From positions 97,003-161,002 of the IMG/VR virus record IMGVR_UViG_3300025133_000029: a stretch of 64,000 bases of DNA; one strand, 5' to 3'. The stretch comes from a virus. This document shows positions 6,859 to 62,563 of the stretch, piece by piece (position 1 is the stretch's first letter; the number at the start of each line of letters is the position of its first letter). The notes beneath the pieces are model-generated. The model saw only the letters and a program-made list of their open reading frames with translations, had not been told where the DNA came from and did no database searches. Made by a program: the position numbers and the translations under genes.

Positions 6859-6893
6859 TGTATCTCCCCAACCTCACAAGAGGAGAATTTGAG

Positions 6894-10493: not shown

Positions 10494-10497
10494 TGTT
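10432..10497. repeat. perfect 33-bp tandem duplication
   Basis: GTGGAGTCTGTGATTCGATGCTTGGACATTGTT x2. Confidence 0.95.
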
Positions 10498-23928: not shown

Positions 23929-25725
23929 CTACGACTTCATCTCTTTTTGAATCTCAGATTGATATTTTTTATCGAGTTTCCGTGGCTTCAGTATTTTTGA
24001 TCGAACAAGCGCCTGCATGAGGAATTTGAACTCCTCGAGCGACCATTCGGTTATTCCCTTTGTTTCACCATCGGGCAGGTATCTATCTGGTGTGTCGTAC
24101 ATGCGGCGAAAAGCACCGATCGCCTGTTGTTTACTTGGGAAGTTGAGAGCCACTTTGTCATCGTAAGGCTCGTCGTCTGTGTGTGGGTCTACAACGTGAA
24201 ATACCCAAACCTTCTTTGGAGATTCTTCGTTTCCAAGAAAAACATCCAGGTGGTCTCCATCCGGTGCTATGCCAAGAGTTCCGCGGATATATCCATAATC
24301 AGCAGGCATCGTTGTTGACCAAGATTTTCCTTGTGGTGATTCTCCTGATCTAGTGTTTCCTTGCGAGGTCTCGATCGAAATTCTCAGACCGTGATCATAT
24401 TGTCTGGCATCGAGGGCACGTCTTCCTTTGTTTACATTGTCTATGGCCAGTGGGTCATTGTTTTGTGGGATAAAGATGTGTCGCAAGTGATCGATGTATT
24501 GACGATGGAACTCGATACCTAAGAGGTTAGCAAGAGAGGAGATGGCTTCGATGTGTTGGATGATATAGCTGAAGCCCCAATAACCATCTTGTCGATCATA
24601 GTGCAATGGAACACCCAGGACGGGACTAAGTAATTCTTCAAACAGTCGAGCTAAACATCTCCGAGGAGCGTCATTGTTGTGCAACCCATCCATGCGCCGT
24701 TTGTAGTGTTGTTGCATTTTATGTTCTGGGGTGAAGTGCAGTGGATGAATTCCGGTGCTTTTATCGGGGACGATGAGATTCCATTCTTGCGATGCTCGGA
24801 TAAATTCTCTGACGTTTTTGTCCGCACTGGATGCTCTCTGTCCAAATCCTGTGTGGAAATCGAGCGCTTCCAGGAGGGCATGGGTCAGTGTATTGTTAGG
24901 CTTGTTTTTGTCTGGTTCCAGAATTGCTAAAGTGCGCCAATGAGATCGGTAGTAGCCAATCATCGAGTCGCCGGAGGATTTGTGTGTTTCTACAACAAGA
25001 CCAATCCCGTGTCTTGCTAATGCTTCTCTTACACAAAATGCTCGATGGAGCTTGCCCATGTATGCAGTCAGTTGTTGAAACACAGGAAGTGCTAATTCAT
25101 ATTGTCCTGCGAGCGGACCATCTTGTGGAGAGAAAAGTATCAAACCCCATCGATCCCATGCTTGTTGGATGTATTGTTCATACATTCGAACCCAAGGATG
25201 TGCATCGGGATCTACTCCGAAAGACTTATAGTATTCTCTCCAGCCTATCGGGTTGTTTACCAAGTACTCTCTGGCAATAACGGCATCTCGTGTATGCCCA
25301 GAAAGCAGAAAGTGTTGGGGCGTGGTTTTATTCTGTTGGCTTTCTACCTGCGAAAGCATGAACACATAACTGGATGCGTCTTGTATAGCATCTTCGCTCA
25401 TGGAGGGATGATTGTCTTCTTCCATGACTTGATGTTGTTGTAGTTCTACCAGAGCAGTAGAGCGAGATGTTTCTTCAGGAGCATCCATCAGAGCTTTGTA
25501 TAGAGTTATTCGCTTTTGATGCAGAAAGAGATCTCGTCCACGAGTAGAAAGAGATGCGGCACCAGAACTTAATGTTGGCGCTGCATCTGTCGTCCATATT
25601 TTTTCTATCTCAAGAGGAGGAGGTGGCGGGAGAGTTCCTTGTGTGTTGGTCCATTGTGGTGACCATGATACCTTTTTCTCACAGGGATGTTTATCGTCTA
25701 GACTGCCAAATGCAAAAGTAAACAT
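23929..25725 (-). CDS. protein with a C-terminal inorganic-pyrophosphatase-like (InPase) domain
   Basis: ISIETSQG..RSG...GKSWSTTMPADYGYIRGT...DGDHLDVFLG...DDKV. Confidence 0.8.
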   Translation of the reverse strand: MFTFAFGSLDDKHPCEKKVSWSPQWTNTQGTLPPPPPLEIEKIWTTDAAPTLSSGAASLSTRGRDLFLHQKRITLYKALMDAPEETSRSTALVELQQHQVMEEDNHPSMSEDAIQDASSYVFMLSQVESQQNKTTPQHFLLSGHTRDAVIAREYLVNNPIGWREYYKSFGVDPDAHPWVRMYEQYIQQAWDRWGLILFSPQDGPLAGQYELALPVFQQLTAYMGKLHRAFCVREALARHGIGLVVETHKSSGDSMIGYYRSHWRTLAILEPDKNKPNNTLTHALLEALDFHTGFGQRASSADKNVREFIRASQEWNLIVPDKSTGIHPLHFTPEHKMQQHYKRRMDGLHNNDAPRRCLARLFEELLSPVLGVPLHYDRQDGYWGFSYIIQHIEAISSLANLLGIEFHRQYIDHLRHIFIPQNNDPLAIDNVNKGRRALDARQYDHGLRISIETSQGNTRSGESPQGKSWSTTMPADYGYIRGTLGIAPDGDHLDVFLGNEESPKKVWVFHVVDPHTDDEPYDDKVALNFPSKQQAIGAFRRMYDTPDRYLPDGETKGITEWSLEEFKFLMQALVRSKILKPRKLDKKYQSEIQKEMKS

Positions 25726-25836
25726 GGTGAACTCCGGTGAGTATAAAAGCTATCTTTATCGTAGAGTGAATTTATTTCATACACATCAATCTTGTATCAG
25801 ATTATATAGGGTTTGATCGAGAACATGTAAAAAAAT

Positions 25837-25870
25837 AAAAAGGCCCAAGATATAAACCTTGGGCCTTTTT
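25837..25870. terminator. bidirectional intrinsic terminator
   Basis: AAAAAGGCCCAAG-loop-CTTGGGCCTTTTT. Confidence 0.88.
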
Positions 25871-25963
25871 ACAAGGAGATAGGAGAGAGAGTGACAAAAA
25901 CCTCGATGATCGTAGAGGAATCGTCAAGACAATTAGATCACACAGAGTAGATAATCGTCAAGT

Positions 25964-26878
25964 TTATGAGTTTGGTATTTGTGTAAAGATATTTGCCGTG
26001 GCTTGGTTTGGTGTGGTGAATACTCTTTTGTACCGTGTCGCGGGAATTCTAATCTGCACCCTAACTCCTCTTGGTAGCTTGAGTGAAAAGAATCCGTTAC
26101 TGTCCGTTTTGACCTTTTGTTCTCTATCTCCCCAGGCAACTCCCATTGTTAGGTTGGGCATGGCGATGAGTCTTCCAAAGACAGGGACATCAGCATATGG
26201 GGTTGGGGGGTAATTCTCGGGATTCCACACTTGACCTGTCAGTTCAATAATTCCACTTCCAGGGATGCTCGAGGCATCATAGGTTACCTCCACTTTTCCA
26301 CTGACTCTCCCACCGGGAGTATCGATATTAATAACCTTGTTTTTTCCCGGAGATATTGCGGTTCCAACGGTGACTTGTATTTGTGAGTCGGTATTGGCAG
26401 TGATGGCAACAATAACACCATCAATGGTAACAGATGTAGCGTTCGCTAAATCCTTCCCATTTAGATTGAGTGTGGCGTTGTGAGCTACTGGATCTGTTCC
26501 AACTCCTGGAGGTGCGTCAGTTTGCAGATTGAGTGTTGGTGGATCTTGAGCAGGATAGGTTGGGAAAGTGGTGACAACGTGTAGTTGATCTTGATATGTA
26601 ACAAAGGCTCCAGGCGTTACCGGAGTTATTCGGTATCGAAAAATCCCGGCAGTATCAACATCGCCGATGCTAAATTTCAGGGTATATAGACCTGGAGTGA
26701 CAGCGGTTCTATCAATCCAATCGGATATCAGTATTGATTTTGAAGTAAATCCTGGATCTCCTTCTTTTTTTATAGTCACTAGTACTTCGGAATGTAGCAG
26801 GTTATCAACGGGAACATTATTGCTATCGAAAAGTTGTACTGCGTCTTCGGTTGCTACGCTTTTAAGGACTGTGTTCAT
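25964..26878 (-). CDS. beta-rich IPT/TIG (Ig-like) domain protein, putative virion structural protein
   Basis: LNLNGKDLANATSVTIDG...NTDSQIQVTV...IDTPGG; SD AGAGGTG. Confidence 0.7.
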   Translation of the reverse strand: MNTVLKSVATEDAVQLFDSNNVPVDNLLHSEVLVTIKKEGDPGFTSKSILISDWIDRTAVTPGLYTLKFSIGDVDTAGIFRYRITPVTPGAFVTYQDQLHVVTTFPTYPAQDPPTLNLQTDAPPGVGTDPVAHNATLNLNGKDLANATSVTIDGVIVAITANTDSQIQVTVGTAISPGKNKVINIDTPGGRVSGKVEVTYDASSIPGSGIIELTGQVWNPENYPPTPYADVPVFGRLIAMPNLTMGVAWGDREQKVKTDSNGFFSLKLPRGVRVQIRIPATRYKRVFTTPNQATANIFTQIPNS

Positions 26879-27043
26879 ATTATGGCACCTCTTTTTCAAA
26901 ACTTTATACTTTTCCAAGATACAGTGGTCTTGTGAAAGGTACAATCTTTAGAGTCTAAAGATTATATAGATGGGGTGGGGAGAGGATTTAGATTAGGAGT
27001 GTGGGGGAGGGGAAGTGGTGGGATTGGGGTGGGGTGTTTGGGC

Positions 27044-27457
27044 TTAGGAGATTCGGTGGAATTCGACTTCGACCCAAAGCTCGAGGATGCCAGCATCGCC
27101 ATCGGTCAGTTCGATATCAACAGTATCGACGCCACCTGTAAAGAGGGAGTAGGCAGCGGTTGTGCTCAGGTCGCCAGAATTGACGGACTTGCCAACGGCA
27201 GTGGCACTGGAAAGATCCATGACAGCAGCGAGGGCAGAGTTTGCACCGCTCTTTATATCGAGGGTGTCACCTGCGCCACCGACTCCACCAACGAGGAGGG
27301 CTTTGGCGGATTTGAATTGCAAGACCATTCCAGTGGGAACAGCAACACTGACAGTCCCTGCAGCAGTGAGTTTTTGTACAAACTTAGGATTGTTTGACCA
27401 TGCTCCATTGAGTTGTGGGGCAGAGTTTTCGGCACCTATTTGCGTGGGAAACGACAT
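27044..27457 (-). CDS. small G/A/T/S-rich protein, possible capsid decoration protein
   Basis: SD AGGAG; composition; neighbours. Confidence 0.55.
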   Translation of the reverse strand: MSFPTQIGAENSAPQLNGAWSNNPKFVQKLTAAGTVSVAVPTGMVLQFKSAKALLVGGVGGAGDTLDIKSGANSALAAVMDLSSATAVGKSVNSGDLSTTAAYSLFTGGVDTVDIELTDGDAGILELWVEVEFHRIS

Positions 27458-27519
27458 AAGGAATTTCTCCTATATTGTGGGGTATATGCTTTGTTTGTGA
27501 TGTTTGCGTGTGTAGGGGT

Positions 27520-28128
27520 TTAGGATTTGCGGGTAGAGCGTCGGAAGTGTGCAGAGTTCACGTCAAGAGCTTTGGCGATGTCACTCGGCTCGAGTCGCAT
27601 TTTATCAGTGGGGGATGCGATGAGAGAGACACCGATGGTTCGAACGCCTACTTCCGCATTGTTGAAGGAAACGTAGATGAGGGTTTGTTTGGGGATGATG
27701 ATGTTTGATTTTTTCCCAGTGACGGTATCTCCGATAGCCACTCCATCGATTTGCTTGAGGAACTTGATGGACTTTGCGGGAAAGTTATTGGTAGCAAACC
27801 CGGTCACGCCGAAAGTTGTCCCTTCGGTGCCAGTTCCCCCAACGACGTCAGCATCAGCTGCAGTTCGTGTATGCAGCTTGATGGTCGTACCCGCTGCGAT
27901 AAGAGCATTGTTCTGAAGGTTTGCGATAGCGATTTGTTTGATATGTACAGGATGCTCGAAGAAGCCAAGGCAGACGTGTTTTTCTTGTCCACTATTTGTT
28001 TCGATTTCACGCATACTGCAAATTTCAGCAACGTTGAGTTGCTCTGTGATCTCACGAACAACATTCGATCCAAGATCATCAATAACGCGAATCTCGTTTC
28101 CAGATCCGGCTCTGCGGTTTCTACCCAT
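27520..28128 (-). CDS. beta-rich protein, possibly structural
   Basis: SD AGGAG; 202 aa. Confidence 0.6.
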   Translation of the reverse strand: MGRNRRAGSGNEIRVIDDLGSNVVREITEQLNVAEICSMREIETNSGQEKHVCLGFFEHPVHIKQIAIANLQNNALIAAGTTIKLHTRTAADADVVGGTGTEGTTFGVTGFATNNFPAKSIKFLKQIDGVAIGDTVTGKKSNIIIPKQTLIYVSFNNAEVGVRTIGVSLIASPTDKMRLEPSDIAKALDVNSAHFRRSTRKS

Positions 28129-28291
28129 TGTTTTGTTCTCCTGTGTTTGCCAATTGAATCTATAAACAAGCCTATAAAAATAATGACTTGCTCGTTATTC
28201 TTACACGTAGGAGGGTATGCGAAAGATTCTTTTCTGGTCAAGTTATAAAAAAATGTCAGCTTTTTATTTAGTATTACGTTATATTGTATAT

Positions 28292-28497
28292 AGCATTCTG
28301 CGAAGTACCCCCTCACTGATCAGAATGCTGCCCTTGGAAGCCTTTCAGGCAGGTGATTGTTTTATTCTAACGCGAGTTGAGACCCAACCCTTCCCTCCGG
28401 GTTGGAGTTTCCTCCCTCAGAATAGAGATGAGTGGATCCCCACCAAAGAACTCATCTCATAAAACGTTCGCCTCCTGGAAGGCTTCTTGTTTTTTGT
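28292..28497 (+). ncRNA. candidate structured non-coding RNA
   Basis: Hairpin 28292-28329; 19-bp stem 28337-28356/28468-28486 with G-U pairs on +; inner hairpins 28384-28405 and 28425-28458; U-rich tail. Confidence 0.55.
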
Positions 28498-28529
28498 AGT
28501 TCTTTTCTTCTTTAGACTCTAAAGAAATA

Positions 28530-29522
28530 CTAATCTCCTTTTGTAGTTCGTGACCACTCTCTATACATTTTTCTTTTTTGATGCTCGTATTCGGCTTCAT
28601 CTGAGGAGATGATATTGTAATAATCATCCTCGTTGAAAACTAACCAGCCTAGCTCTCTAAATTCTTCTGGAGGGATGGTAGAGTCAACTTCGGACTCCTC
28701 TATGATAAACCTTCCGTTGTAGAAGATCCCAAAAAACTCTTTCGAGTATGCGAATGTCTTGGAGTCTACCCAGTTTTCAAAATTCCACCCACCTGTCACA
28801 TAATCCACAAGTTCCAAAGGCAGTCCCCCTTCTGGGTTAAAGAAGTTCATTATCCGCAATTCAAACTCCCCTCCCCAAAAGCAACCATCGGCAACGAGCA
28901 GGTTTCCATCTGGGCTTGCGACCATTGACGAGATGCACCAACCGAACCCCTGCAACTTTCCAGCGTGGATTAAACACCAGCGTTGCCGGGTATCGAGGTT
29001 TATCAGGTCTAGTCCTTGGTAGTCTTCTCCACATAAAAGGTATTCATTCCCATTGAGATGATCTACAAAGCAATGCCAGAAGGATGAGTAATTTCTATAT
29101 ATGGCAAAGTGTTCTTTTGTATCATATGGGATTCTTATTGTGCCCTTTGTCAGCTTCCAGGTCCTTCGCCCCGCTTGATAGAAATCAATAGAGAGTTCCC
29201 ATCTACCTGAAGGAGAGGTGAAAAACTTTTTAACCCCTCTAACTTTATTTTTGTCTGCGTAGAGGTGCATTCTGTCTCTGCGCATAAGAGCCATATATTC
29301 TTCTATAGGTATGGATTTGTGTATATTTTCTAGTTCAGTCCATAGCGCTCCAGAGATTGCGCTGTAGGCATCCCCAAGTATTTTTCTGTCCAGGTGTCGT
29401 ATTTCGTATCGCACCATATCCATTCTTCTAAGCTTCTGTGTAGTCTCGAACGACCACGGGAGTTTTCGAAGATTGTGTATGATCCGACGAAGCTTCATTC
29501 CTATTTTTTGAAAAATGTTCAT
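28530..29522 (-). CDS. hypothetical protein with beta-repeat-like C-terminal part
   Basis: 330 aa; RNYSSFWHCF, LLCGEDYQG, SPDGNLLVADGCFWG. Confidence 0.72.
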   Translation of the reverse strand: MNIFQKIGMKLRRIIHNLRKLPWSFETTQKLRRMDMVRYEIRHLDRKILGDAYSAISGALWTELENIHKSIPIEEYMALMRRDRMHLYADKNKVRGVKKFFTSPSGRWELSIDFYQAGRRTWKLTKGTIRIPYDTKEHFAIYRNYSSFWHCFVDHLNGNEYLLCGEDYQGLDLINLDTRQRWCLIHAGKLQGFGWCISSMVASPDGNLLVADGCFWGGEFELRIMNFFNPEGGLPLELVDYVTGGWNFENWVDSKTFAYSKEFFGIFYNGRFIIEESEVDSTIPPEEFRELGWLVFNEDDYYNIISSDEAEYEHQKRKMYREWSRTTKGD

Positions 29523-29715
29523 TTTCTTCCATCTTCTCCTTGTTTATTTTTTGTTCTATATAAAGTAATCGTAAAGGGTTGATCGGCGCGAAGGTTTTTT
29601 ATTATCTGCTTTGTTTGTCTTTTTTTTTTGTGTATAGTGTAGAGGTTTTTTACAAAACTTGGCGATAGTCTTGGTTTCTATTGTCATTCTTCCCTTAGTA
29701 GACAGGAGAGCAGAG

Positions 29716-30279
29716 ATGGCGAGGTTATACGTTGATCAGTATGTTGGCAGGGCGAGAACAGTTAGTGTGGGTGGGCACAATGTTCGGTTCGATGAGAACG
29801 GTGTGTGTGAACACGAAAGCCTTTCCTTTTTAGAGACGGTTCGAAGGGTTGTGCCGAGCGGTGTTATTCTTTCTGAAGAAGTGGTTGCCGAAGAAGTTCC
29901 AGAGGTAGTTGAGGAGCCTGTTGAAGTTGCTCCAGAAGCTCCAGAGGTAGTTGAGGAGCCTGCCGAACCAGAGGTGAAGCTTGCGATTGAATCGCCAAAA
30001 GAAGTCGAAAAAGACACTCCCGCTCCTGCTCCCGCCTCTGGTGATTGGAGAGAAGATGTTCGTCGGAAGGTGGAAGAGGATAAGAAGGCAAAAGAATCCG
30101 AGGCGCCTGCAGTTCCTACTACTTCTGTTCCCGAAGCTCCAGTGGTTCCGGAAGCTCCAGCAACACCTGTCCCTGAAGCTCCTTCAGCGAAAAAGAAAGC
30201 AGGGAGCAAGAAGAAGTCTTCGAATAAAAAGAAGTCGTCGAATAAAAAGAAGGGAAAGCGCAGTAAGATAAAAGAGTAG
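29716..30279 (+). CDS. protein with E/P/A-rich linker and Lys-rich C-terminus
   Basis: SD AGGAG; PEVVEEP x2; KKKSSNKKK tail. Confidence 0.75.
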   Translation: MARLYVDQYVGRARTVSVGGHNVRFDENGVCEHESLSFLETVRRVVPSGVILSEEVVAEEVPEVVEEPVEVAPEAPEVVEEPAEPEVKLAIESPKEVEKDTPAPAPASGDWREDVRRKVEEDKKAKESEAPAVPTTSVPEAPVVPEAPATPVPEAPSAKKKAGSKKKSSNKKKSSNKKKGKRSKIKE

Positions 30280-30301
30280 ACATGATCGCTAGGAGAGAGA
30301 T

Positions 30302-30595
30302 ATGGCAGGAAAAGATTCTTTCATTTGTCCCAATTGCAAGGGTTCTTACTTTGGGACAACCCGAGACAAAAAGAGAAAGACAACAACCTTGAACTGTCAT
30401 GGTTATATCTCAACAGGCCCCGGGAAACATTCTCGCCCTTGTGGATACAGTGTCCCTTATACCCTGGAAGGTCTTGGCGAAGACAACTATCGTCGCCTAA
30501 CCAGAAATGCAGGAACTGTTATGGTTGGAGTGAGTGTGGGTCCGATCAAGACGGTCGAGGTAAAGAAGCGATCTCCTGGATACACTTTGCCTTAG
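30302..30595 (+). CDS. small Zn-ribbon protein
   Basis: CPNC...CHG...PCG; SD AGGAG. Confidence 0.65.
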   Translation: MAGKDSFICPNCKGSYFGTTRDKKRKTTTLNCHGYISTGPGKHSRPCGYSVPYTLEGLGEDNYRRLTRNAGTVMVGVSVGPIKTVEVKKRSPGYTLP

Positions 30596-30609
30596 ATAAG
30601 CCCCTCGCC

Positions 30610-31449
30610 CTATGAATGGAAGAGGGCATCCTGCCATTCACTTCTCCACCTCTCTGCTCTCTCAGACATTTGAAATCCTCTCCTCTTTATGACCTCCAGA
30701 ATCTCCCTCTCCCAGAAGCCTCTTGTTAGTTCACACCAAAAGTCAAAGACCAGTTCATCCACGATGTCGCTTGTGCTAAAGGCACTGTATATAGGTTCCC
30801 GCATGTTGTTTCTGAGGTATCTGATTGTTCTGGCGATGGCTCGAATGACTTCGATCTGTCTATCAAATAAATCAATATCGTTCCCCAGGAACTCCCACAC
30901 AAGATTAGCAGTACTTATGTATTGATTGGTTTGAATTGCTATTTGATAGGCTTGCGGGGAGAGTGAAGGATCCGGAGATGGAGACTCCTCTTCTCTTTTT
31001 CGTAGTCTCTTACCACAAAGATCCAGTTCTGTTTTTATCTTTCTAATGAGTGCTTCGAACCCAAGGATGATCTGGTTCTTGGAGAGTCGCATCAGAAATG
31101 TGTTATTTGTGGGAGCCAATGCCATCCAGTGTCTGTGTTCTTCTCTAAAATATCTGTAGGAGACTTTGACCTCTCCCTCCCATATTGGCTTTGGGGACAA
31201 ATGCCCTTCAGGGAAGTCTTCTCCCAAGAGGGGCATCTGTCCCCATCTATATAAGTAGTCATCCGCTTGTTTATATTCGGATAATAACCAAGGACAGATA
31301 TGTATCGCAAGGTTTTCATTCTCTAGGCCCAATCCCATACTTCGGAGGTTCCTCTCGCCCTTAGCTATGAGGTTGCCCATAGTGATGAGGAACTTTTTAG
31401 CACCAAGTGCTCTTTGTCCGGGGATGAGGTCTCTACCTTCTATAAGCAC
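30610..31449 (-). CDS. acidic-LF tail family protein
   Basis: Ends ERWRSEWQDALFHS. Confidence 0.7.
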   Translation of the reverse strand: MLIEGRDLIPGQRALGAKKFLITMGNLIAKGERNLRSMGLGLENENLAIHICPWLLSEYKQADDYLYRWGQMPLLGEDFPEGHLSPKPIWEGEVKVSYRYFREEHRHWMALAPTNNTFLMRLSKNQIILGFEALIRKIKTELDLCGKRLRKREEESPSPDPSLSPQAYQIAIQTNQYISTANLVWEFLGNDIDLFDRQIEVIRAIARTIRYLRNNMREPIYSAFSTSDIVDELVFDFWCELTRGFWEREILEVIKRRGFQMSERAERWRSEWQDALFHS

Positions 31450-31485
31450 GATTCTGTCCTTTCTTTGTAGAAAAATCTTTAGACT

Positions 31486-32274
31486 CTAAAGATCCATAAA
31501 GAGAGCTTGGTCTAATTCTTCTTTCAGAGACTCCAGATTTACACGGCGGGGAGCGTTCTCCAATATGAGGTTAGCAAGTCTTCTTCGCCACGCCACTTGC
31601 TCTCTCTCTCTTTGAATCCACAGGTAAAGCATCAGTTGTGTCTGACTCACAGCTGGTATTGGGGTGCGAACGTAGTATTTGTGTATGGCGGCATAGAGTA
31701 TTCCTGGGAGGAAATCGATGAGCCTCGAGTGCCTTTGAAGGGGAAGGCTTGTTCGGAGAAGAGATGTAGCGCTTCTTTTGTTGGGGATGTGATATTCTTC
31801 TGCGATGCGAATCCACTCTTCCAGGAGTTGGATGTGATGATTCCGCACTTCTTCCAACTCCTCCACCCCTTGATATTGTTGCACCCATGTTGGTATTTTG
31901 ATCTGGTGTGTTTCTTTCAGCAATTGCTTCATCAAGTCTACAACGATCTTGCAGCTTGTGGCCTCCAGCCACTCCTGTGTCTGGGGTTTGACGATGATGG
32001 CATTCTTCGGGAGGTCTCCAAAAATTGCGATCTGCCCTTCGAGGTAATCTATTCCAGAGAGGATGTGAAACCGAATATTAAACTTGCCTTCGTTGATATG
32101 AAAGTCACCTACGCAAGCATGGGGGGTTATTCTGGAGATGGCTTCGAGGCTTCTCTGGTATCTGTAGGGTGACATACAAACGAGGACATGCCTGTCCCAT
32201 TCAAGACGGGAGGCACCCCATAGGGACTCTCGCTTGTTGCTCTCGAGTATTTCCTTTGCTTCTTGGTCATTCAT
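31486..32274 (-). CDS. acidic-LF tail family protein
   Basis: Ends ESLKEELDQALFMDL; stop lies inside a palindrome copy. Confidence 0.7.
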   Translation of the reverse strand: MNDQEAKEILESNKRESLWGASRLEWDRHVLVCMSPYRYQRSLEAISRITPHACVGDFHINEGKFNIRFHILSGIDYLEGQIAIFGDLPKNAIIVKPQTQEWLEATSCKIVVDLMKQLLKETHQIKIPTWVQQYQGVEELEEVRNHHIQLLEEWIRIAEEYHIPNKRSATSLLRTSLPLQRHSRLIDFLPGILYAAIHKYYVRTPIPAVSQTQLMLYLWIQREREQVAWRRRLANLILENAPRRVNLESLKEELDQALFMDL

Positions 32275-32285
32275 GGACGGTGGCC

Positions 32286-32594
32286 CTATTCCTTTTTATC
32301 CAGTCTTGGTAGGATGGCGATAATATTTGGGTCAGTCTCTTTACTGAAGATGTGTTGAACAATTGCGAGGACGTTGGGTGGGAGTTTATCTTTTGGACCC
32401 CGATGGATTTGGTAGTCGTCGAGGCATACTATTCCTAGATCTCCTGACTTCCCTTCGTGAATGACTCCTCCATAAGAGAGAGAGTGTTCAAAGAAGGAAA
32501 AGATCTCTTCGTCCGATGTGTTAGCTGGTATCATTCTGGTGGCGACTGCGCTTAGGCCGTTTATGCTAGCGCATAGTATCTTCCTGTTTCCCAT
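32286..32594 (-). CDS. hypothetical protein
   Basis: SD AGGAG; 102 aa. Confidence 0.65.
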   Translation of the reverse strand: MGNRKILCASINGLSAVATRMIPANTSDEEIFSFFEHSLSYGGVIHEGKSGDLGIVCLDDYQIHRGPKDKLPPNVLAIVQHIFSKETDPNIIAILPRLDKKE

Positions 32595-32618
32595 GGCTTT
32601 GTTCTCCTGTCGTAGGTG

Positions 32619-33497
32619 TTATTGCGCAAACAACCCATCTTCTAATTGGTCCCGGAAGTCTCGTGCTTTGGTTAGTTTGTACTGACGTTCTCTTAGGGAG
32701 TCTAGGAATAGTCGGTGCCAGTATGTTTTATTTGCTTCTAGCCATAGGTTGCAGAGGAGTTCTCTTTTTCTTATGGAGGGTCCATCGTTGCCGGATATTT
32801 TCATGTGGTAGCCAGCGCGGACGCGAAAGAAAACGCCCGAGAGTTGTTCTATTATGTTTGATTCTTGGTAGACGTATGCGCTTATCTCGTTCCATCTTGC
32901 TCCGGTGAAGATCTGGTCGGCGAGTTCCCGCATAAAGAGTCTGTCCTCGTTTATCCAGTAGGCTATCCGTTCTTCTTCTTTTGTCATCCTGGCTTCGCTT
33001 ACTGTTCCTGCTAATAGTTCTCTCACCTTTCTTTGTTCACGCGCAGCCACGACGCTGATTTGTTGATGGTAGAGCCACCACACCCATGTATTGATGTTTG
33101 TGATGTGTTCTTCGTTGTGCATCCAGCCTAGTTCAAATGGCATGGCAACTACCATGTTCTCTGGCATCAGGTTATCTACGCACCAGACAAGATATGTTTG
33201 GTCGTAGACTATGGAGTCAAATCCATCATCGGGTGCCTTGACTCGGTGGATTCCAAAGGGGGAGTGACTGGTGAGGTAGACCCCACCGTTTTCTTTTCTT
33301 AGGGTGAGCATGTCGACGTTTGAAAAAAAGTGCCCTCTTTTAGCCCCCTGGAGGCTCTTCTTGCCAACCATCAAGGTAAGTATCCTCTTCCCTGCCCTGC
33401 GCTCCACACAGAGGACGAGAGACCTATCAGAATGGATTCTAGATGTCTGGTGTATGGCCTGCATCGCAATATTGTCTAGAAAAGTATTCTCACTCAT
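32619..33497 (-). CDS. acidic-LF tail family protein
   Basis: Ends RDFRDQLEDGLFAQ. Confidence 0.7.
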   Translation of the reverse strand: MSENTFLDNIAMQAIHQTSRIHSDRSLVLCVERRAGKRILTLMVGKKSLQGAKRGHFFSNVDMLTLRKENGGVYLTSHSPFGIHRVKAPDDGFDSIVYDQTYLVWCVDNLMPENMVVAMPFELGWMHNEEHITNINTWVWWLYHQQISVVAAREQRKVRELLAGTVSEARMTKEEERIAYWINEDRLFMRELADQIFTGARWNEISAYVYQESNIIEQLSGVFFRVRAGYHMKISGNDGPSIRKRELLCNLWLEANKTYWHRLFLDSLRERQYKLTKARDFRDQLEDGLFAQ

Positions 33498-33573
33498 CGC
33501 GCAAACTACTCCCTGAAATTATCTAAGATCTTTACCAAAATCTTTAGACTCTAAAGATTTTCCTGTCGCGTTT

Positions 33574-34395
33574 TCACCCAACGTCAAACAAAACTTCGTC
33601 CCACATCCCCCTCCATCTCTCCACGCTCTCCCCTAAACCCTTCTCGCGTATCCCAAATAACTCACGCAGCCTCCGTATAGAGCTAAACCACTCTAGAGAC
33701 TTTCTATAGAACCCCAGCTTTATGACGTTCGTAACATGTGGGTTTCCAAATATAGAGCGAAGGGTATAGTCCAACCTCACCCGACCAGAGTACAGATCCA
33801 AGAGTCTTATGTTTCGAGTCTCAACTTCAACACGAGAAGAGCTATTGGGTCGAAATAAATACACAAAGAGGTCGGATGGATTTCTTATTTCCCTGATATG
33901 CCGAAGATTAGCAGTAGCATCAGCTATCTTTTTTTCGCGCTTCTCTACAGTAAGTGCAGGATCCAATAGTCTGACCACCAAGTCATTGTAGCGATTGTGA
34001 CGATCACGATCCGCAGACCGATTCAACACCCCCCACGTATGCATCGTATCCCAGGTAACTCGCCACACCACACATGAATAATCAAAGAGCAAGCCATCAG
34101 GAGCATGCAGTAGTAGGCTTTTCATCTGTGGAATGAACCAAACCTCACCATTATCCAAACCATTATCCAATGAACCATGGACAAAGAACTCCACCCTTCT
34201 ACTGTTTATAGAGTCTCCCAAATAGTCATCCCTAAACTCTATACGCGCCCCATACCCCAACCCACCCACCAAGTCTTCACAAACTTTTAGGCCACACGCC
34301 ACCATCCCCAACCCAAGTCCCTCTCCCTCCAACCACCACCTACACGCATCCAGCGCCCCAAAGAACTGATCGCTGTCCCTGTATACAACGCGCAT
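33574..34395 (-). CDS. acidic-LF tail family protein
   Basis: Ends ERWRGMWDEVLFDVG; motif at 34462 upstream. Confidence 0.68.
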   Translation of the reverse strand: MRVVYRDSDQFFGALDACRWWLEGEGLGLGMVACGLKVCEDLVGGLGYGARIEFRDDYLGDSINSRRVEFFVHGSLDNGLDNGEVWFIPQMKSLLLHAPDGLLFDYSCVVWRVTWDTMHTWGVLNRSADRDRHNRYNDLVVRLLDPALTVEKREKKIADATANLRHIREIRNPSDLFVYLFRPNSSSRVEVETRNIRLLDLYSGRVRLDYTLRSIFGNPHVTNVIKLGFYRKSLEWFSSIRRLRELFGIREKGLGESVERWRGMWDEVLFDVG

Positions 34396-34663
34396 CTATC
34401 TCACTCCCTACATGAGTCTCACCCCACCCCAACTAATCTCTCACGCAATAAACAAATCAGAGCATTTACCACCACTACCCACCATTATTCATCCATCAAC
34501 TGACCCAACTCCTCCTTCTCCCCATAACACCTCCTACACAACAACAACCTCACCCACGGCGTCTCATCATGACACCCCCTATCCACATACACCCTCACCC
34601 ACCTACACACCATCCTCCTCTCACACACATCACACACCTCCCTCACCATCTTCTTTCCCTTCC

Positions 34664-35326
34664 TCATCTCTTCAACTCCCCACACAATGGAGCCACACCC
34701 AACACTCCATCACCCAAATCTTTAGACTCTAAAGATCCACCAACTTCTGAACCCAACTCACCACCCGCCAAACACTCACCACCCGCCAAACACTCACTAC
34801 ACGAATACTCCTCCAACACACCATCCACACCATAATAACCAGCAAACACATTCAACGCCGCAAACAAACCACATCCCACACACGAACCCTCCAAACCATC
34901 CCTACCCACAAACCTAACCCAATACCTCTCACCACACAATACATCAAAACTCTCATCCTCCAACGTACACACATAACCCAAACGACGCATACCACCCCAC
35001 AACTCAAACATACCCCTACCCGACCAATAATATGGTAACTCCTCACCACCCAATATCATTCCACCCATCCTCACACCCACCCATCCCCTAAACCCCCTCG
35101 CCTTCCTTATCTTACTCCAACCCAAACACCTACCCACATACTTGTCTATCTCCCTACTCCCCTCCAATACACTAACACCCAAGCCACCCAGCACATCACC
35201 ACATAATCCCAATAACCCATCCTCATACGGATGCACACCCACACCCTCCAATGAAGGCATCTCAACCACTACACCCAAGCCACCCATACCCACCCTCTCC
35301 CTATACCCACCCAAACCAAATATCAT
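34664..35326 (-). CDS. Gly/Val-skewed ABA-sandwich-like protein
   Basis: IDKYVGRCLGW...LPYYW...LFAAL; SD GAGG; composition follows the local G/T skew. Confidence 0.55.
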   Translation of the reverse strand: MIFGLGGYRERVGMGGLGVVVEMPSLEGVGVHPYEDGLLGLCGDVLGGLGVSVLEGSREIDKYVGRCLGWSKIRKARGFRGWVGVRMGGMILGGEELPYYWSGRGMFELWGGMRRLGYVCTLEDESFDVLCGERYWVRFVGRDGLEGSCVGCGLFAALNVFAGYYGVDGVLEEYSCSECLAGGECLAGGELGSEVGGSLESKDLGDGVLGVAPLCGELKR

Positions 35327-35552
35327 CCTCTTCTCTCCTCCTTCTCACCTCCTTCTCACACACCCTTACACACGCCACCATATCCACACATATACAACAC
35401 ACCCCAAAAATTCCTACCCATATAAACAAACATAACATCTGATCCAACGAAATAAATTATTACACTATAAAAACATACCCTACTCACTCACACACCTAAC
35501 CACTACCACACCCACTCACACCACCCATATAACCCAATAAACCACTAATCTA

Positions 35553-35920
35553 ATCTTTAGACTCTAAAGAAATACATCATCTAATTCCTCACTGAACCAT
35601 AGAGGATTCTTCTCAGACCCTCTCTGAGATTAGAGAATCCCACCTAGTCCTCTCGGACCCTCTCTGAGATTAGAGAATCCCACCTAGTCCTGTGAGGATT
35701 TCAGGGCATTCTCTAATCCTCTCGGACCCCATCTAATCTTAGAGAGGGCCACCTAGTCCTGTGAGGATTCCAGAGAATTCTATAATCCTCTCGGACCCCA
35801 TCTAATCTCAGAGAGGGTCTATTGCCAGCCTATCTAATCTCAGAGAGGGCTTATTGCGAGGATTCTAGAGGACTAGATGGGATTCTCTAATCTCAGAGAG
35901 GGTCTATTGCCAGCCTAGAC
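35553..35920. other. putative replication origin (iteron-like repeats at a strand-skew inversion)
   Basis: 17-mer CCCTCTCTGAGATTAGA forward at 35618 and 35658, reverse at 35732(1 mm), 35801, 35833, 35886; 40-bp and about 69-bp direct repeats; + strand C/A-rich to the left and G/T-rich to the right. Confidence 0.65.
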
Positions 35921-35942
35921 CCTTGGGGGGGTGGAAAAAAAT

Positions 35943-36731
35943 TTATTTTTTTATTAAAACCGGCGCAAGAGGGACAATACCGAGGCTGCGGCCATTGTTG
36001 GGTGGTGCCTGGGTTTCGCTGGGGTTCTCTAGTGGTGCCGGGGTGAGGATATAGGGTGAGATGCGCCACTTGTCTTTTGGGTTTCCTTCGATGTGGGCAG
36101 AGACGGTTCTCTTGTTTACCCTTATAACGATGGCGTGTTCTGTGTTTCCTTGGTATGGGAAGCTTACGCGCTGCCCTGGGTAGAACTCCTGGATCTCTTC
36201 ATTGGGTCGTAGGTATTCGAGAGGGGGTAGTCCGGCGTCCCGTGCTTCACTATATATATAGATAGAAAGCTCTTGTGGAAGGTCGTGGTTGCGGTGGAGG
36301 TCATCGAGGATGCGATAGAAGGCGGGGCTGTGTACGTTGTTGCGGGTGGGATGTCCCCGATAAACTTGTATGAGGTGTGCGTATTCATGGAGGCACAGCG
36401 CGACCAACTGACATAGGAAGGAGTTGGGGTTGTCTTCTGAGGAGAAGTATCCACGTTCTCGTATCTCACTAGATGCGGTCCATCCGTGGGCGTGGCGCGG
36501 GGATTCCATTTTTTGGCGGATGGCTTTTTTGCCGTATCGGATGTAGTGCGTGCCTCGTTTTTTGATGTGGTGAGATGTCTTTCTATTGGACACTCCAAAG
36601 TCTACGGGGATATATGCAGTTGTTTGCATGATTTCGCGTATGGCGTAGTGGTGAATTACCTCTTTGGTGGCACTTGCCAGGATTAGGGCGAGTCTTTCTA
36701 TCTGTATATTGGTCCATGGTTGAGGTGTCAT
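35943..36731 (-). CDS. SprT-like zinc metalloprotease domain plus C-terminal SH3-like domain
   Basis: LHEYAHLI...HSPAFYRIL; FYPGQRVSF...VIRVNKRTVS. Confidence 0.75.
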   Translation of the reverse strand: MTPQPWTNIQIERLALILASATKEVIHHYAIREIMQTTAYIPVDFGVSNRKTSHHIKKRGTHYIRYGKKAIRQKMESPRHAHGWTASSEIRERGYFSSEDNPNSFLCQLVALCLHEYAHLIQVYRGHPTRNNVHSPAFYRILDDLHRNHDLPQELSIYIYSEARDAGLPPLEYLRPNEEIQEFYPGQRVSFPYQGNTEHAIVIRVNKRTVSAHIEGNPKDKWRISPYILTPAPLENPSETQAPPNNGRSLGIVPLAPVLIKK

Positions 36732-37059
36732 GTGGGGTTATCCTTTTTATATGGTGTGGTGATCCTCTTTCTTGTGTTGCTATCGTCCTGTCTGCGTATT
36801 GTATAGAAAGCAAAGCATTTACGTGTGGTTAGTCTTGGTGCGGGAGGACTTGGTGTACTGTCTGTAAAAATGGAGAATGTGGGGATTGTCCGAAAAAAAA
36901 AGATCCGGACAGTGAGCGGGTTTGATTAGGGTCTCTCACAGGGGAAGTAAGAGCTTTTTTGGTGGGGATTGTGGTTTTTGTGAAAAAGGGTAGTTTTGGG
37001 GTGTTTTTGGTGGGGAAAGGTGTGGATCTTTAGAGTCTAAAGATTTTCATGTAGAGGAC

Positions 37060-37100
37060 CCCACTCGCTTATATATATAAATATATATAAGCTCGTTGGG
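37060..37100. repeat. (TA)n-core hairpin element, copy 1 (reverse orientation)
   Basis: CCCACTCGCTTATATATATAAATATATATAAGCTCGTTGGG. Confidence 0.85.
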
Positions 37101-37104
37101 GCCT

Positions 37105-37602
37105 CTATGGTGATTTGTCTTTGGGTTGGGATATGTCGAAGATCTCTTGTGGGGTTCTCATGAAGGTTTTTGTACGTTGTTCTGGGTCAGGGTGGTTGTG
37201 GTATCGGATGGGTATGGGGGTGTGGGGGTCTGTTTTTAGAAGATTTGCGACAATGCTTCGTCCTTTTCCGATTCCACCAGTGTGATAGTTGACGTGCGCG
37301 ATGGGGAAAGTTTTGGTGAGAAGCTCTTCGGTTCCAGATTCTCTGGAGATGTCGAGAGGGGACATGGATGTTTCAGCGGATATGGTGGTGAGTTCGTGGC
37401 ATCCCGGTTGTTGTAGCACTTGGTCGATGCGCTCAATGCCACCTGCAACACCCGAAAACCCCTCGTCGCTGGATGAAGCCTGGAGGTAGTGTCGAGGGCA
37501 GGAGGTTGTTGGGTATAGTAGGATGCGGAGTCGGTATTGTTTGCCTGGGACGGGTTTGAATCGTTGGTGTTTGGATTGTGGTGGGCTGGAGGTGGGCTTC
37601 AT
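37105..37602 (-). CDS. hypothetical protein
   Basis: 165 aa; SD AAGGA. Confidence 0.5.
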   Translation of the reverse strand: MKPTSSPPQSKHQRFKPVPGKQYRLRILLYPTTSCPRHYLQASSSDEGFSGVAGGIERIDQVLQQPGCHELTTISAETSMSPLDISRESGTEELLTKTFPIAHVNYHTGGIGKGRSIVANLLKTDPHTPIPIRYHNHPDPEQRTKTFMRTPQEIFDISQPKDKSP

Positions 37603-37728
37603 GTTTATTTTTTATCCTTTTTGAGTTTGAAGTGGAGTTGAGTAAAGGAGGTGTCGCCATCGGAGGTCGTTCTTCTTTTGTAGACACGAAAGGAGATGGG
37701 GTGGGGAGAGGGTGGGGAGTGATGGATG

Positions 37729-38100
37729 CTATCCCAGCATGTCTCGGAGTTCTTCGAAGGCATCTCCGATGTCGTCGGAGTGTTCGCCCTGTGTCCATTC
37801 GAGGGCATAGGCGAGTCCTTGCACTTGGCACATCCAAATCAGTGCGCCGAGCTTTTCGGCCCCCTTGGGTCCAAAGATTTGACTGAAGTGGGATACCAGT
37901 TGAGGGTGCATCTCTACCTGGGCCTGGAGGGCTTCCCGCAGATTTTGGGTGGTGTCGGGGACGGACGCGGTGCGTTGTGGGTTTCCGACAATGGAGTAGG
38001 GGATGTGTGCTGCTGCTAGCAGTTGTTTTGCGCGTCCTGTGTTTTCTTCGACTGTGTTGTTGGGGCTGTCGTGGATGATGATTGTTTCTATTGGTTTCAT
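37729..38100 (-). CDS. hypothetical protein
   Basis: 123 aa downstream of the ComM-like gene. Confidence 0.6.
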   Translation of the reverse strand: MKPIETIIIHDSPNNTVEENTGRAKQLLAAAHIPYSIVGNPQRTASVPDTTQNLREALQAQVEMHPQLVSHFSQIFGPKGAEKLGALIWMCQVQGLAYALEWTQGEHSDDIGDAFEELRDMLG

Positions 38101-38111
38101 GTGTGCTGGGC

Positions 38112-39686
38112 CTACTGGTTAGGGGGGAGGAGGTCGAGGGCTTCTTTGAGGTGTTCGTCGAGGATGTGGATGGAGCCTTCGATGTCGGCGATGGTTCTGG
38201 CGAGTCTTCTGGCGGTGATTTTATTATAGAATCGGTGTGCTTGATTGAGGAGTCTGGTGTCGTTGCAGGATGTGAGGGCGAAGTCGTTGTGAGAGAGAAC
38301 GAAGTCGGGAGGGCATGTTCCGTTGTTGTTGAGATTGGGGGCGAAGAAGTTACGGAATCGTATTCGTTGGGCGTTACGGGCGAGGAGGAGAAACACTTGA
38401 AGTTCATCGCTGGTGGGGGCGTGGTGATTGTCTTTGGGGTCGTTGGGTGTTGGTGTGGGGAGGTGAGTCCATATCTGTACCCTATTGGCAATTCTTTGGT
38501 TGCCGGGAGTCATTTGTCGTCTTGAGCTATGGGGAGCTTGTGTGGAAAAAACGGGGAGTGTGTGAATGGGGAAGGTTGTGGTGGTGTGGAATGTGTTTCC
38601 GCGGAGTTTGTAGTTTTTTTGGAAGGAGTTGCTTGCTCGTGGTATTTGTCTTTCGCGTGGTGGAGAGTCGAGGGTTCCCTCGGGGGTGTGATACATGCAG
38701 TGAAAGAGTCGCTCGAGGGTGTCTTCGAAGAGGGTGGCTTCATCGAGGAAGAGGATTCCGTGCAGTGCTCGATGGAGTTCACCGGGGTGGTCGTGATTGC
38801 CGGTAAGACCCTTTGTGCTGATGGTGTGGTGGGGGGCGCGAAAGGGAGGGGCATTGATGGGTTCGGGGTTGTGTCTTGCGTAGAGGAGATTGAGGTCGCG
38901 CTGTTGGTATTCGTCGAGGGGTGGGAGGATAGTGTTGATGCGTCGGGCGAGCATGGTTTTGCCTGTGCCTGCTTCTCCGTGGATGGCGATGGGGTGCCAT
39001 CCGGATGCGGCGATCAGAGCATGGCGGATATTAGGGAGGAGGTGGCGAGGGAGTTGTGAGAAGCATAGGTGGGTCGATCGAGACAGTGTTTGTGGCTCTG
39101 TGGGGCTCTCAGGGGGGCTGTAGGGGACGAGGGCTCTGCCCTCTTGAGTCATTGCGTCGAGGAGGTAGGTGAGTTGTTCGATGTCTTCACATGGGATGAT
39201 GTCGACCTTGTCGGCGAAGAGGTTGAGGATGTTGGAGTGGGATCTGATGCAGTCAGTGGAGAGAAAGACTCGTGCGATAGTGTCGCACTGGGAGGCGTGG
39301 TGGAGAAGGGTGTAGAGTCCGTGACATGGTTTGATTCGGCCAGAGAGGGCCAGTTCGCCCCAAAAGATGGAGTTTAGGGTGGGGATAAAGGGGATGCGTT
39401 CTTGGGCGAGGAGGAGGGAGACCGCGATGGGGAGGTCGAGGCATTCGGTGTTATTGGTGTTGGGTTGTGCTTCGATAGTAGTGCGGTAGGGGATGGTGCG
39501 TGAGAAGGAGGTTGCGGAGTTGCGGAGAGCGGCGGTGACGCGGATCTTTGTTTCGCGGAGGGGTTTTTGGAGATCTTGTTGAGAGTGCTTGATGGTGAGT
39601 GCGGGTTCACCTGCTTGTAGAACTTCCGTTCCGATGAGCGCGGGGAGGGGGCGTGGTCCTCGCGAGAGAAATCCATTTACGTACAT
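38112..39686 (-). CDS. divergent ComM/YifB-like (Mg-chelatase-related) AAA+ ATPase
   Basis: LDLPIAV, GELALSGRIKP, GEAGTGKTMLARRINTILPPL, PFRAPHHTIS, PGELHRALHGILFLDE, RLARTIADIEG; the CPCG Zn motif is not seen. Confidence 0.88.
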   Translation of the reverse strand: MYVNGFLSRGPRPLPALIGTEVLQAGEPALTIKHSQQDLQKPLRETKIRVTAALRNSATSFSRTIPYRTTIEAQPNTNNTECLDLPIAVSLLLAQERIPFIPTLNSIFWGELALSGRIKPCHGLYTLLHHASQCDTIARVFLSTDCIRSHSNILNLFADKVDIIPCEDIEQLTYLLDAMTQEGRALVPYSPPESPTEPQTLSRSTHLCFSQLPRHLLPNIRHALIAASGWHPIAIHGEAGTGKTMLARRINTILPPLDEYQQRDLNLLYARHNPEPINAPPFRAPHHTISTKGLTGNHDHPGELHRALHGILFLDEATLFEDTLERLFHCMYHTPEGTLDSPPRERQIPRASNSFQKNYKLRGNTFHTTTTFPIHTLPVFSTQAPHSSRRQMTPGNQRIANRVQIWTHLPTPTPNDPKDNHHAPTSDELQVFLLLARNAQRIRFRNFFAPNLNNNGTCPPDFVLSHNDFALTSCNDTRLLNQAHRFYNKITARRLARTIADIEGSIHILDEHLKEALDLLPPNQ

Positions 39687-39808
39687 GGTAGCTCCTGGGT
39701 GGTGGGGGGGTGTTTTTTTATTAGTTGCTTCGTGAATGAAAGAAAGCAAAGCATTTACGTGAGGGGAAATCTTTAGAGTCTAAAGATTTTGGATAGAGGT
39801 GTTGTGGG

Positions 39809-39850: not shown

Positions 39851-39944
39851 GGTGTGAATTAGAGGGTGACTCTTTTGGTTTCTTCTTCGGTGAGGCCATC
39901 GATGGTCTCGAGGTATTTTCGAGTGAGCCACGTTCTACGCATGC

Positions 39945-60193: not shown

Positions 60194-60499
60194 TTTGTTA
60201 GCTCCTAGCTAATAAAGGGTATATAGGGGATCACTCAACCTATAACAACCCAGAGCATTTACCCTGCTAGGGTTAGCGGGGGTTAGCTAGGGTTAGCGGG
60301 GGCTAGCGGGGGTTAGCTAGGGTTAGTGGGGGCTAGTGGGGGCTAGTGGGGGCTAGCGGGGGTTAGCGGGGGCTAGCGGGGGCTAGCGGGGGCTAGCGGG
60401 GGTTAGCGGGGGCTAGCGGGGGTTAGGTAAATGCTTTGTTTTGTTGCACTAGCTCGAACAACAAAAGCCCCTAACGGGGCTAGTTAGGGCGCGGGGGGT

Positions 60500-62195: not shown

Positions 62196-62563
62196 GTTAG
62201 CTCCTTAGCTAATAATAAATAGGGGATCACTCAACCTATAACAACCCAGAGCATTTACCCGTTAGGGTTAGCTAGGGCTAGCTAGGGCTAGCGGGGGCTA
62301 GCGGGGGCTAGCGGGGGCTAGCGGGGGCTAGCGGGGGCTAGCTAGGGTTGTTAGGGTTGTTAGCTAGGGTTGTTAGGGTTGTTAGGGTTGTTAGGGTTGT
62401 TAGCTAGGGCTAGCTAGGGTTGTTAGCTAGGGCTAGGGTTGTTAGCTAGGGTTAGCTAGGGTTAGCTAGTACAACAAAAGGTTTATAACAAAGCAGAGCA
62501 TTTACCCCTAAGCCGCTATAAACGAGAAAAGCCCCGCTAGGGGCTAGCTAGGGGCGCGGGGGG

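Follow-up and report, generated by a model that had tools for sequence, protein, structure and literature searches.

What leaves a kilobase of phage DNA with almost no G on one strand, and what does it mean that the asymmetry reverses at a cluster of repeats? We addressed this question for a locus near 35 kb in a 64,000-nucleotide window, the whole stretch of DNA that was analysed, which comprises bases 97003-161002 of the 161,002-bp virus contig IMGVR_UViG_3300025133_000029. The contig is classed as linear and estimated to be ~68% complete, and all contig-wide negatives given here (initiator, RNase H, skew) cover that share of the genome. It matches phages of Alphaproteobacteria and others only distantly, via a helicase, and megablast returned no nucleotide match in the phage collection. 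Window coordinates are used throughout. Composition was scanned in 100-bp bins, 300-bp windows and 2-kb bins, and third-position skews, expressed on the + strand, were ranked over the 179 open reading frames (ORFs) of the contig. A preliminary description of this DNA had proposed a bidirectional origin of replication at the repeats. The proposal appears only partly right: the locus is best seen as a putative asymmetric initiation or strand-displacement zone on a palindromic array, and the composition patch is most likely the footprint of a putative start site of replication or of an R-loop, where one strand is long single-stranded.

A G-poor island with a repeat cluster at its edge

From 34400 to 35599 each 100-bp bin of the + strand holds 1-7 G, 31-50 C and 24-46 A. 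In 300-bp windows, the GC skew of this patch runs from -0.75 to -0.90 and the AT skew from +0.17 to +0.44, in agreement with the earlier statement that the + strand is nearly G-free and C/A-rich over 34.4-35.55 kb. The minimum of -0.90 corresponds to z = -7.5 among the 300-bp windows of the 161-kb contig. With the patch excluded, these windows have a mean of +0.18 (standard deviation 0.15), and none of them falls below -0.40. To the right the sign is reversed: GC skew is +0.19 to +0.57 and AT skew negative over 36.0-39.8 kb, and the G/T-rich + strand was correctly placed from ~35.95 kb onward.

The two spacers of the island, at 34396-34663 and 35327-35554, have GC skews of -0.85 and -0.94. They are as biased as the 220-amino-acid (220-aa) ORF between them (Table 1), so the bias is no by-product of the Gly/Val-rich protein that this ORF encodes. 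Its third codon positions carry A 11, C 1, G 47 and T 41%, with both C and A scarce, and its third-position GC skew (GC3 skew) of -0.94 is the lowest of all 179 ORFs. As spacers and third positions are equally skewed, the bias is regional and acts on silent sites. The C that persists on the minus strand mostly occupies second codon positions (9%) or belongs to functional motifs (palindromes, promoter). Across the cluster, these values face spacers of +0.44, +0.63, +0.36 and +0.52, and the spacers on that side remain at +0.36 to +0.63 out to 42.5 kb, then at +0.1 to +0.34. The flip is thus real and centred on the cluster and, being present in spacers and third codon positions, goes beyond a simple coding effect. 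The flanking genes are all on the minus strand on both sides, as had been described.

The two edges of the island differ. On the right, the G-free zone ends within ~100 bp, at a palindrome and the repeat cluster. On the left, the decay is stepped: third-position G+T on the minus strand is 0.80-0.97 at 34.70-35.33 kb, 0.73 in the last 11 codons of the 220-aa gene and 0.53-0.73 across 33.3-34.4 kb, then falls to 0.23 at 33228-33317 and to 0.1-0.4 further left. The step between the strongly biased tier 1 and the moderately biased tier 2 coincides with a cassette promoter at 34462.

The asymmetry is accompanied by unusual structural properties. All four G3-type quadruplex motifs on the minus strand of the contig are at 34248-35312, in tier 1 and the adjoining edge of tier 2, and GGG runs number 39-40 in each of the two 1-kb bins that cover the island, roughly sixfold the mean of 6.8 per kb. 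The + strand of the island is barely foldable (-0.03 to -0.04 kcal/mol/nt, vs a contig mean of -0.29 with a standard deviation of 0.05). No known RNA family was found. The bulk of the + strand quadruplex motifs belongs to a separate feature near the right contig end, where long tandem arrays of GGGTTAGC / GGGGGCTAGC-type units occupy 60270-60422, 62265-62396 and 63775-63887; these arrays are telomere-like and G-quadruplex-prone.

The repeats reported at the flip were all recovered. The 17-mer CCCTCTCTGAGATTAGA occurs in forward orientation at 35618 and 35658, in exact reverse orientation at 35801, 35833 and 35886, and in reverse with one mismatch at 35732. At up to two mismatches it is unique to the cluster in the whole contig, and one unrelated site with three mismatches lies ~108 kb away. 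Two copies of a 40-bp direct repeat and 2.5 copies of a 69-bp one are combined with inverted arms of 36 nt (97% identity) and 48 nt (92%), and a copy of a genome-wide palindrome adjoins them. Folded as single-stranded DNA, the cluster gives a single long, nested hairpin of -86.5 kcal/mol (z = -9.5 vs shuffles), so it is better called a compound imperfect palindrome of repeated sites, ~300 bp long. The A/T-only run next to it corresponds to the adjoining A/T-rich unwinding element of an iteron origin. In its anatomy the cluster resembles an origin: the 17-mer is repeated and unique to it, the inverted repeat is compound, and the contig's longest A/T run lies alongside. The cluster also contains six GANTC sites (top 1.7% of windows). 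Over 35570-35934, GANTC and CTAG each occur six times (top 1-2% of windows) and GATC is absent; the dispersed 15-bp palindrome likewise has a GANTC centre.

An assembly artefact or junction was excluded, as four sister contigs from Joint Genome Institute (JGI) metagenomes, which may include re-assemblies of the same samples, are colinear with the window across the locus at ~97% identity. The alignment block with one of them, L001, is unbroken from 24901 to 37727. The preliminary description had named an assembly junction or a recent inversion at 35.6-35.9 kb as what would undo its reading; neither was seen, and the five assemblies show no inversion polymorphism. All four sisters carry a 96% identical copy of the 220-aa ORF. 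A 62-nt duplication near its start and varying copies of a ~20-nt unit near its end shift the frame in the sisters, leaving a common in-frame core of ~156 aa, and their cluster has one 32-nt unit fewer. Slippage indels between the window and the sisters amount to 5.9/kb in the island and 5.7/kb in the cluster, vs 0.9-2.6/kb in the flanks.

Genes, promoters and the polarity of the contig

The ORF in the G-poor island is a real gene. Its minus-strand open frame of 226 codons (220 aa from the ATG) is longer than any obtained by dinucleotide shuffling (3000 shuffles; mean 66, maximum 174). The + strand of the island was rejected as coding: its longest frame has 134 codons, a length reached by 738 of 1000 shuffles, and this strand can only make TAA stops. 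The 220-aa protein has no match in Pfam, PHROG or Atlas, and the databases return only the sister copy; a single-sequence AlphaFold2 model was uninformative (predicted local distance difference test score of 30). The 273-aa gene to its left has a GC3 skew of -0.36, the second lowest in the contig, and a + strand third-position G+T of 0.33. Only these two island genes of the 179 ORFs fall below 0.4 in the latter measure, and they are the lowest by far. The island is not a hypermutated copy of another genome region, since no protein paralogue was found and matches in a purine/pyrimidine alphabet (longest 33) were at chance level.

Table 1. Features of the locus (window coordinates)
Feature	Position	Strand	Remarks
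Tier-2 island	33300..34399		Inverted polarity like tier 1 but moderate; end near 33.3 kb
273-aa gene	33574..34395	-	N-terminal part inside strongly skewed zone
Tier-1 island	34400..35554		+ strand C ~46%, A ~31%, T ~19%, G ~4%; minus strand nearly C-free, G/T-rich
Cassette-promoter motif	34462..34469	-	GTAAATGC, then CTCTG..TTTAT; before 273-aa gene; position-weight-matrix score 29.4; tier-1/tier-2 boundary
220-aa ORF	34664..35326	-	C-free coding strand; AGGAGG-type ribosome-binding site
15-bp genome-wide palindrome copy	34720..34734		Within 3' part of 220-aa ORF
15-bp genome-wide palindrome copy	35555..35569		Right edge of G-free zone, left edge of cluster
Repeat cluster	35604..35922		Six 17-mers, 40-bp and 69-bp direct repeats, nested inverted repeats forming a ~300-bp imperfect palindrome
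A/T-only run, 25 nt	35935..35959		Longest in the 161-kb contig; 13 bp past cluster; overlaps stop codon of SprT-like gene
SprT-like zinc metalloprotease, 262 aa	35943..36731	-	HExxH motif; Atlas feature score 0.96 to SprT-family clusters
Cassette-promoter motif	36815..36822	-	Before SprT-like gene
ComM/YifB-like AAA+ ATPase	38112..39749	-	Pfam Mg_chelatase, ChlI, Mg_chelatase_C

The two promoter motifs in Table 1 leave the cluster and the 220-aa gene between them, and no cassette-class promoter was detected between 35327 and 36800. No minus-strand terminator-like site was found between the promoter at 36815-36822 and the cluster, so transcription of the SprT-like gene may continue across the cluster and into the 220-aa gene. 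The window has 39 exact copies of GTAAATGC on its minus strand. From 34469 to 63931 on that strand the cassette promoter extends to the consensus GTAAATGCTCTGcTTTtTTATA, followed by TGA ~5-6 nt on.

To the right of the cluster, the product of the gene at 35943-36731 is a SprT-like protease and not an initiator, and its sequence gave no match in Pfam, PHROG or the PDB. The ATPase further right is ComM-like, with ChlI, Mg_chelatase and Mg_chelatase_C all above the Pfam cut-offs; of the 207 profile positions, its AAA+ match spans only 14-121. Its third codon positions are C 57% and G 6%, and its GC3 skew of +0.80 is the highest of the 179 ORFs, tied with that of the ORF at 9848-10225. The ORF at 37105-37602 ranks third. 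Thus, the two ORFs with the lowest GC3 skew adjoin the cluster on the left, and a tied-highest and the third-highest are within 4 kb on its right.

This bias extends to the proteins. The 220-aa protein has G 23% and V 10% and the ComM-like ATPase P 9%, T 9% and H 6%, which bears out the described Gly/Val-rich and Pro/His/Thr-rich sides of the locus. Relative to the usual composition, Gly is halved in the ATPase, Val is below one third, Thr, His and Asn are about doubled and Pro is also raised, and the protein keeps 91 of 162 conserved columns. Compositional pressure has reached the protein level in this gene. Its best non-sister homologue scored 121 bits (E 6e-30) in a HMMER search of 1.8 billion representatives. 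The ATPase is very divergent, and may be drifting under compositional pressure or have been repurposed.

The + strand is G/T-rich along the whole 161 kb, and its third-position GC skew averages +0.29 (standard deviation 0.23) over the 179 ORFs. Throughout the contig, + genes are G3-rich, - genes are C3-rich and spacers have more G than C, so that one strand is G/T-rich whatever the direction of transcription. Only three 2-kb bins are not G/T-rich on the + strand: two at the island and one near 7-9 kb that is weakly negative (-0.06). The island shows the same kind of keto bias as the genome, but roughly fivefold in strength and with the strands exchanged. In huge phages and organelles, such one-strand polarity has been taken as a sign of unidirectional replication (PMC7162821, PMC4316638). 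The single polarity in the rest of the contig suggests that bulk replication runs in one direction through it and that the locus is at most a local asymmetric initiation zone. As the polarity is back to background near 33.3 kb, the feature is a 2.2-kb island and no replichore boundary. The cumulative-type skew check that the preliminary description had suggested, with third positions included, accordingly revealed no replichore switch in the 161 kb, in which the + strand is G/T-rich almost everywhere; the lasting change of sign that a replichore-dividing bidirectional origin should leave was not found in the contig. Of the original proposal there remain the flip at the cluster, signs that match diverging strand displacement, and the origin-like anatomy. 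The division into replichores does not stand, given that the polarity reverts ~2.2 kb to the left.

The cassette region (39000-64000) adds a further component. Its + genes are slightly C3-rich (coding-strand GC3 skew -0.05 to -0.35, with GC3 of 0.55-0.64), and for this reason part of the right-hand skew reflects a general preference of the cassette genes for C-ending codons. In the first 100 kb, unlike in the cassette region, + genes have a GC3 skew of +0.3 to +0.44 and a GC3 of ~0.4; codon regimes differ between the two parts of the genome. The small ORF at 9848-10225, which ties with the ComM-like gene as the most positive, is on the + strand, within the 300-bp window where GC skew peaks for the contig (+0.63). 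At 10432-10497 there is an exact tandem duplication of 33 bp.

Two genes of the sister contigs have no counterpart in the window (L001:3870-4572 and 6722-7520; window ~39856-39881 and ~37705-37727). One encodes a 253-aa pentapeptide-repeat protein and sits between a 380-aa gene and the ComM-like gene, and the other is a 228-aa ORF between genes of 123 and 165 aa. This suggests gain or loss of cassettes in the array.

Proposed strand exposure at the cluster and competing explanations

To account for the signs, the minus strand would have to be exposed left of the cluster and the plus strand right of it. Candidate sources, at least on the left, are lagging-template or displacement-loop (D-loop) exposure at a diverging start, an R-loop from leftward transcription, both of these, or a leading-strand gap behind a stalled rightward fork, which would act on the left only. 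The sharp right edge and the stepped left decay at the next promoter fit a process with its start at the cluster that follows the transcription unit leftward. Such a process is also favoured by the correspondence of tier 1 to one transcription unit, and by the G-runs, quadruplex motifs, unfoldable template and slippage indels. The G-rich non-template strand of known R-loop origins has its equivalent here in a minus strand of ~46% G and ~4% C over 1.15 kb, with dense G clusters. On this basis, we tentatively interpret the locus as an initiation zone with lasting leftward displacement of the minus strand, in the form of an R-loop or D-loop.

The steps may be pictured as follows. The cluster and A/T tract would serve as the protein-binding and unwinding site. 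Nucleic-acid synthesis starting at the cluster would repeatedly peel the minus strand off the duplex in the leftward direction, over ~1.2 kb in most events and up to ~2.2 kb in some. The transcript of the 220-aa gene, which is G-rich and C-free, could bring about the displacement by forming an R-loop, by priming a short D-loop, or in both ways. The exposed single-stranded DNA would lose C (to T) and, at a lower rate, A (to G); over generations, such exposure would have left G/T on the minus strand and C/A on the plus strand. With a transcript richer in G and a C-rich template free of structure, hybrids would in turn form more readily, and such self-reinforcement would explain the extreme value of the skew. 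To the right of the cluster, the plus strand would be exposed, so that the background polarity would be amplified there.

In its strongest form, which is somewhat doubtful, this reading holds that one strand is so persistently displaced that deamination-type pressure has stripped nearly all cytosine from a kilobase, a translated gene included. The locus would then be a self-reinforcing R-loop/D-loop pad with a G-rich, Rho-proof RNA, a C-rich template free of structure, a quadruplex-prone displaced strand and a palindromic repeat array as anchor. Rho requires C-rich, G-poor RNA. The leftward transcript would therefore be immune to Rho and an antisense transcript an ideal target, so the island would allow transcription in one direction only.

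Several observations weigh against an initiation zone. The gene next to the cluster encodes the SprT-like protease and no initiator; neither a Rep_3 (PF01051) nor a lambda-O (PF04492) type initiator was found in the contig, nor was RNase H. The DnaA box TTATNCACA and the CtrA site TTAA-N7-TTAA are both absent in and near the cluster. The convergent layout of the six 17-mers, two forward and then four reverse inside the compound palindrome, differs from the tandem direct array of classical iteron origins. No recognised promoter was found directly upstream of the 220-aa gene, and the nearest, at 36822, would need read-through of the cluster to reach it. The right wing is less clearly local, because a third-position skew of 0.4-0.6 continues to at least 49 kb and is partly codon preference. 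Point substitutions relative to the sisters are not raised in the island (6.4/kb vs 5.4/kb in the left flank); ongoing point hypermutation was rejected on these figures, and little further substitution is expected once the composition is at equilibrium. Finally, no relatives beyond the ~97% sisters turned up in any collection searched, by protein-pattern scans, word-based protein searches, HMMER (for the ComM-like protein), 17-mer scans of viral and metagenome collections, or phage megablast.

Transcription might suffice if the 220-aa unit were R-loop-prone or heavily transcribed, with its non-template strand chronically exposed and the cluster acting as an operator or other regulatory site. 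Tier 1 coincides with one unit (leader, coding sequence and trailer, up to the promoter at 34462), the polarity on the left fits deamination of the non-template strand, and G clusters are dense. About 40 other minus-strand units with cassette promoters show the opposite polarity, however, which argues that transcription alone is not the source of bias in this phage. The extreme opposite genes to the right of the cluster, the A/T tract and the palindrome would also be left unaccounted for, and we consider this explanation unlikely.

Selection could instead have kept the transcript or the DNA free of C or G for a function. Rho rut sites and the motifs cut by mRNA-cutting toxins are well established; carried over to this locus, a C-free transcript could lack YC-rich Rho sites and C-containing toxin target motifs and could escape termination by CTP analogues, and with a G-free strand the duplex could offer no palindromic restriction site bearing G/C. 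The frame has been kept open despite a stop-rich composition and is preceded by a strong ribosome-binding site, the bias matches the transcript-like unit exactly, and the + strand RNA would be essentially structure-free at 46% C. Yet A is also low at silent sites (11% of third positions), for which avoidance of C gives no need, and the bias fades gradually into the next gene. Moreover, the sisters tolerate frame-breaking indels at both ends of the ORF, and its protein is without known function or relatives. Selection on composition therefore seems quite improbable to us.

With a fork barrier or terminus, a rightward fork would stall at the protein-bound cluster, and a gap in the nascent leading strand, or its resection, would leave the minus-strand template single-stranded for 1-2 kb. 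The sharp edge at the cluster, the variable left boundary, the unidirectional polarity of the contig and the raised slippage indels are what such a barrier might produce. The amplified opposite polarity to the right of the cluster would stay unexplained, and nothing resembling Tus or RTP points to this purely conjectural barrier, so that we give it a slim chance.

An old inversion of a ~2.2-kb segment, for example between palindrome copies at 33542 and 35555, with the cluster perhaps a packaging (pac/cos-type) or recombination site, is just as improbable: palindrome copies do stand near both island ends and the tier-2 third-position G+T of ~0.66 equals that of ordinary + genes viewed upside down, but tier 1 is far beyond any gene in either orientation, so that inversion cannot account for the magnitude, the polarity shifts in steps and inside genes where two sharp breakpoints are predicted, the phage promoter and palindromes of the island are in working orientation, and no inversion segregates among the five assemblies. 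End resection at a packaging cut was rejected as well, as it would be expected to give signs opposite to those observed.

Relation to known systems and significance

R-loop origins are established for phage T4 and plasmid ColE1 (PMC12599619). At T4 ori(uvsY) and ori(34) and in ColE1, the origin transcript remains in a hybrid from which the non-template strand is displaced, and it primes or opens the origin (PMC12599619; PMC3016281 as cited there). The initiation zone proposed here would resemble T4, whose origin transcript doubles as an mRNA, in that the 220-aa unit would be origin transcript and mRNA at once. The kb-scale G-free zone, the 17-mer array and the 300-bp palindrome are features of the phage locus only and set it apart from the T4 and ColE1 origins; in addition, the hybrid here is a putative one and RNase H was not found in the contig.

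In the oriLyt of human cytomegalovirus (HCMV), the bases are asymmetrically distributed, repeats occur in direct and inverted orientation, and a G+C-rich transcript forms a hybrid of RNA and DNA (PMC7185721). For the transcripts embedded in herpesvirus oriLyt, HCMV RNA4.9 and BHLF1 of Epstein-Barr virus (EBV), the hybrid of a ~0.8-kb segment is needed for DNA replication (PMC7185721). The phage locus is likewise complex, with asymmetric bases and direct and inverted repeats. However, oriLyt belongs to eukaryotic viruses, its bias is a G+C of ~80% whereas here one base is stripped from one strand at ~50% G+C, and the two share no sequence or protein relationship.

Theta origins of the iteron type (lambda ori, P1 oriR, R6K, pSC101) have repeated 17-22 bp sites by an A/T-rich unwinding tract, and the phage locus has repeated 17-mers beside an A/T tract. 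It departs from them in that its sites are convergent within a palindrome, not tandem direct, and in that no Rep_3 or O-type initiator was found in the contig. For skews of this strength, the closest comparison is the mitochondrial genome of Galdieria sulphuraria, which has a genome-wide GC skew of 0.74, read as unidirectional replication (PMC4316638). As in the phage island, the extreme skew there reaches silent sites and amino acids, and it has been attributed to long single-strandedness of one strand. Unlike in Galdieria, where the skew is genome-wide, it is confined here to an island of 1.2-2.2 kb, with values of -0.85 to -0.94 and a sign opposite to the rest of the contig. A short zone of lasting displacement has a model in the abortive 7S D-loop of mitochondria. 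Immunoglobulin class-switch regions and GC-skewed CpG-island promoters concern different biology and offer an analogy only: there, a kb-scale G-rich, G-clustered non-template strand promotes R-loops (Ginno et al. 2013 as cited in PMC12599619).

To our knowledge, the origins of jumbo phages are largely unmapped, and the locus provides a sharply defined candidate of ~2.5 kb that is directly testable. With a local skew of about -0.9 that is sustained for more than 1 kb, it surpasses the genome-wide record reported for a mitochondrial genome (0.74, PMC4316638), and does so alongside a maintained open reading frame. This makes the island a natural case for the limits of strand-specific mutation pressure on coding sequence, and a test ground for the mutual reinforcement of GC skew and R-loops. 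Should the composition prove to be selected, with a C-free transcript that is Rho-proof or nuclease-proof, it would represent a new kind of phage counter-measure. If instead the locus is a self-reinforcing R-loop/D-loop initiation zone, it would represent an origin architecture not described for phages.

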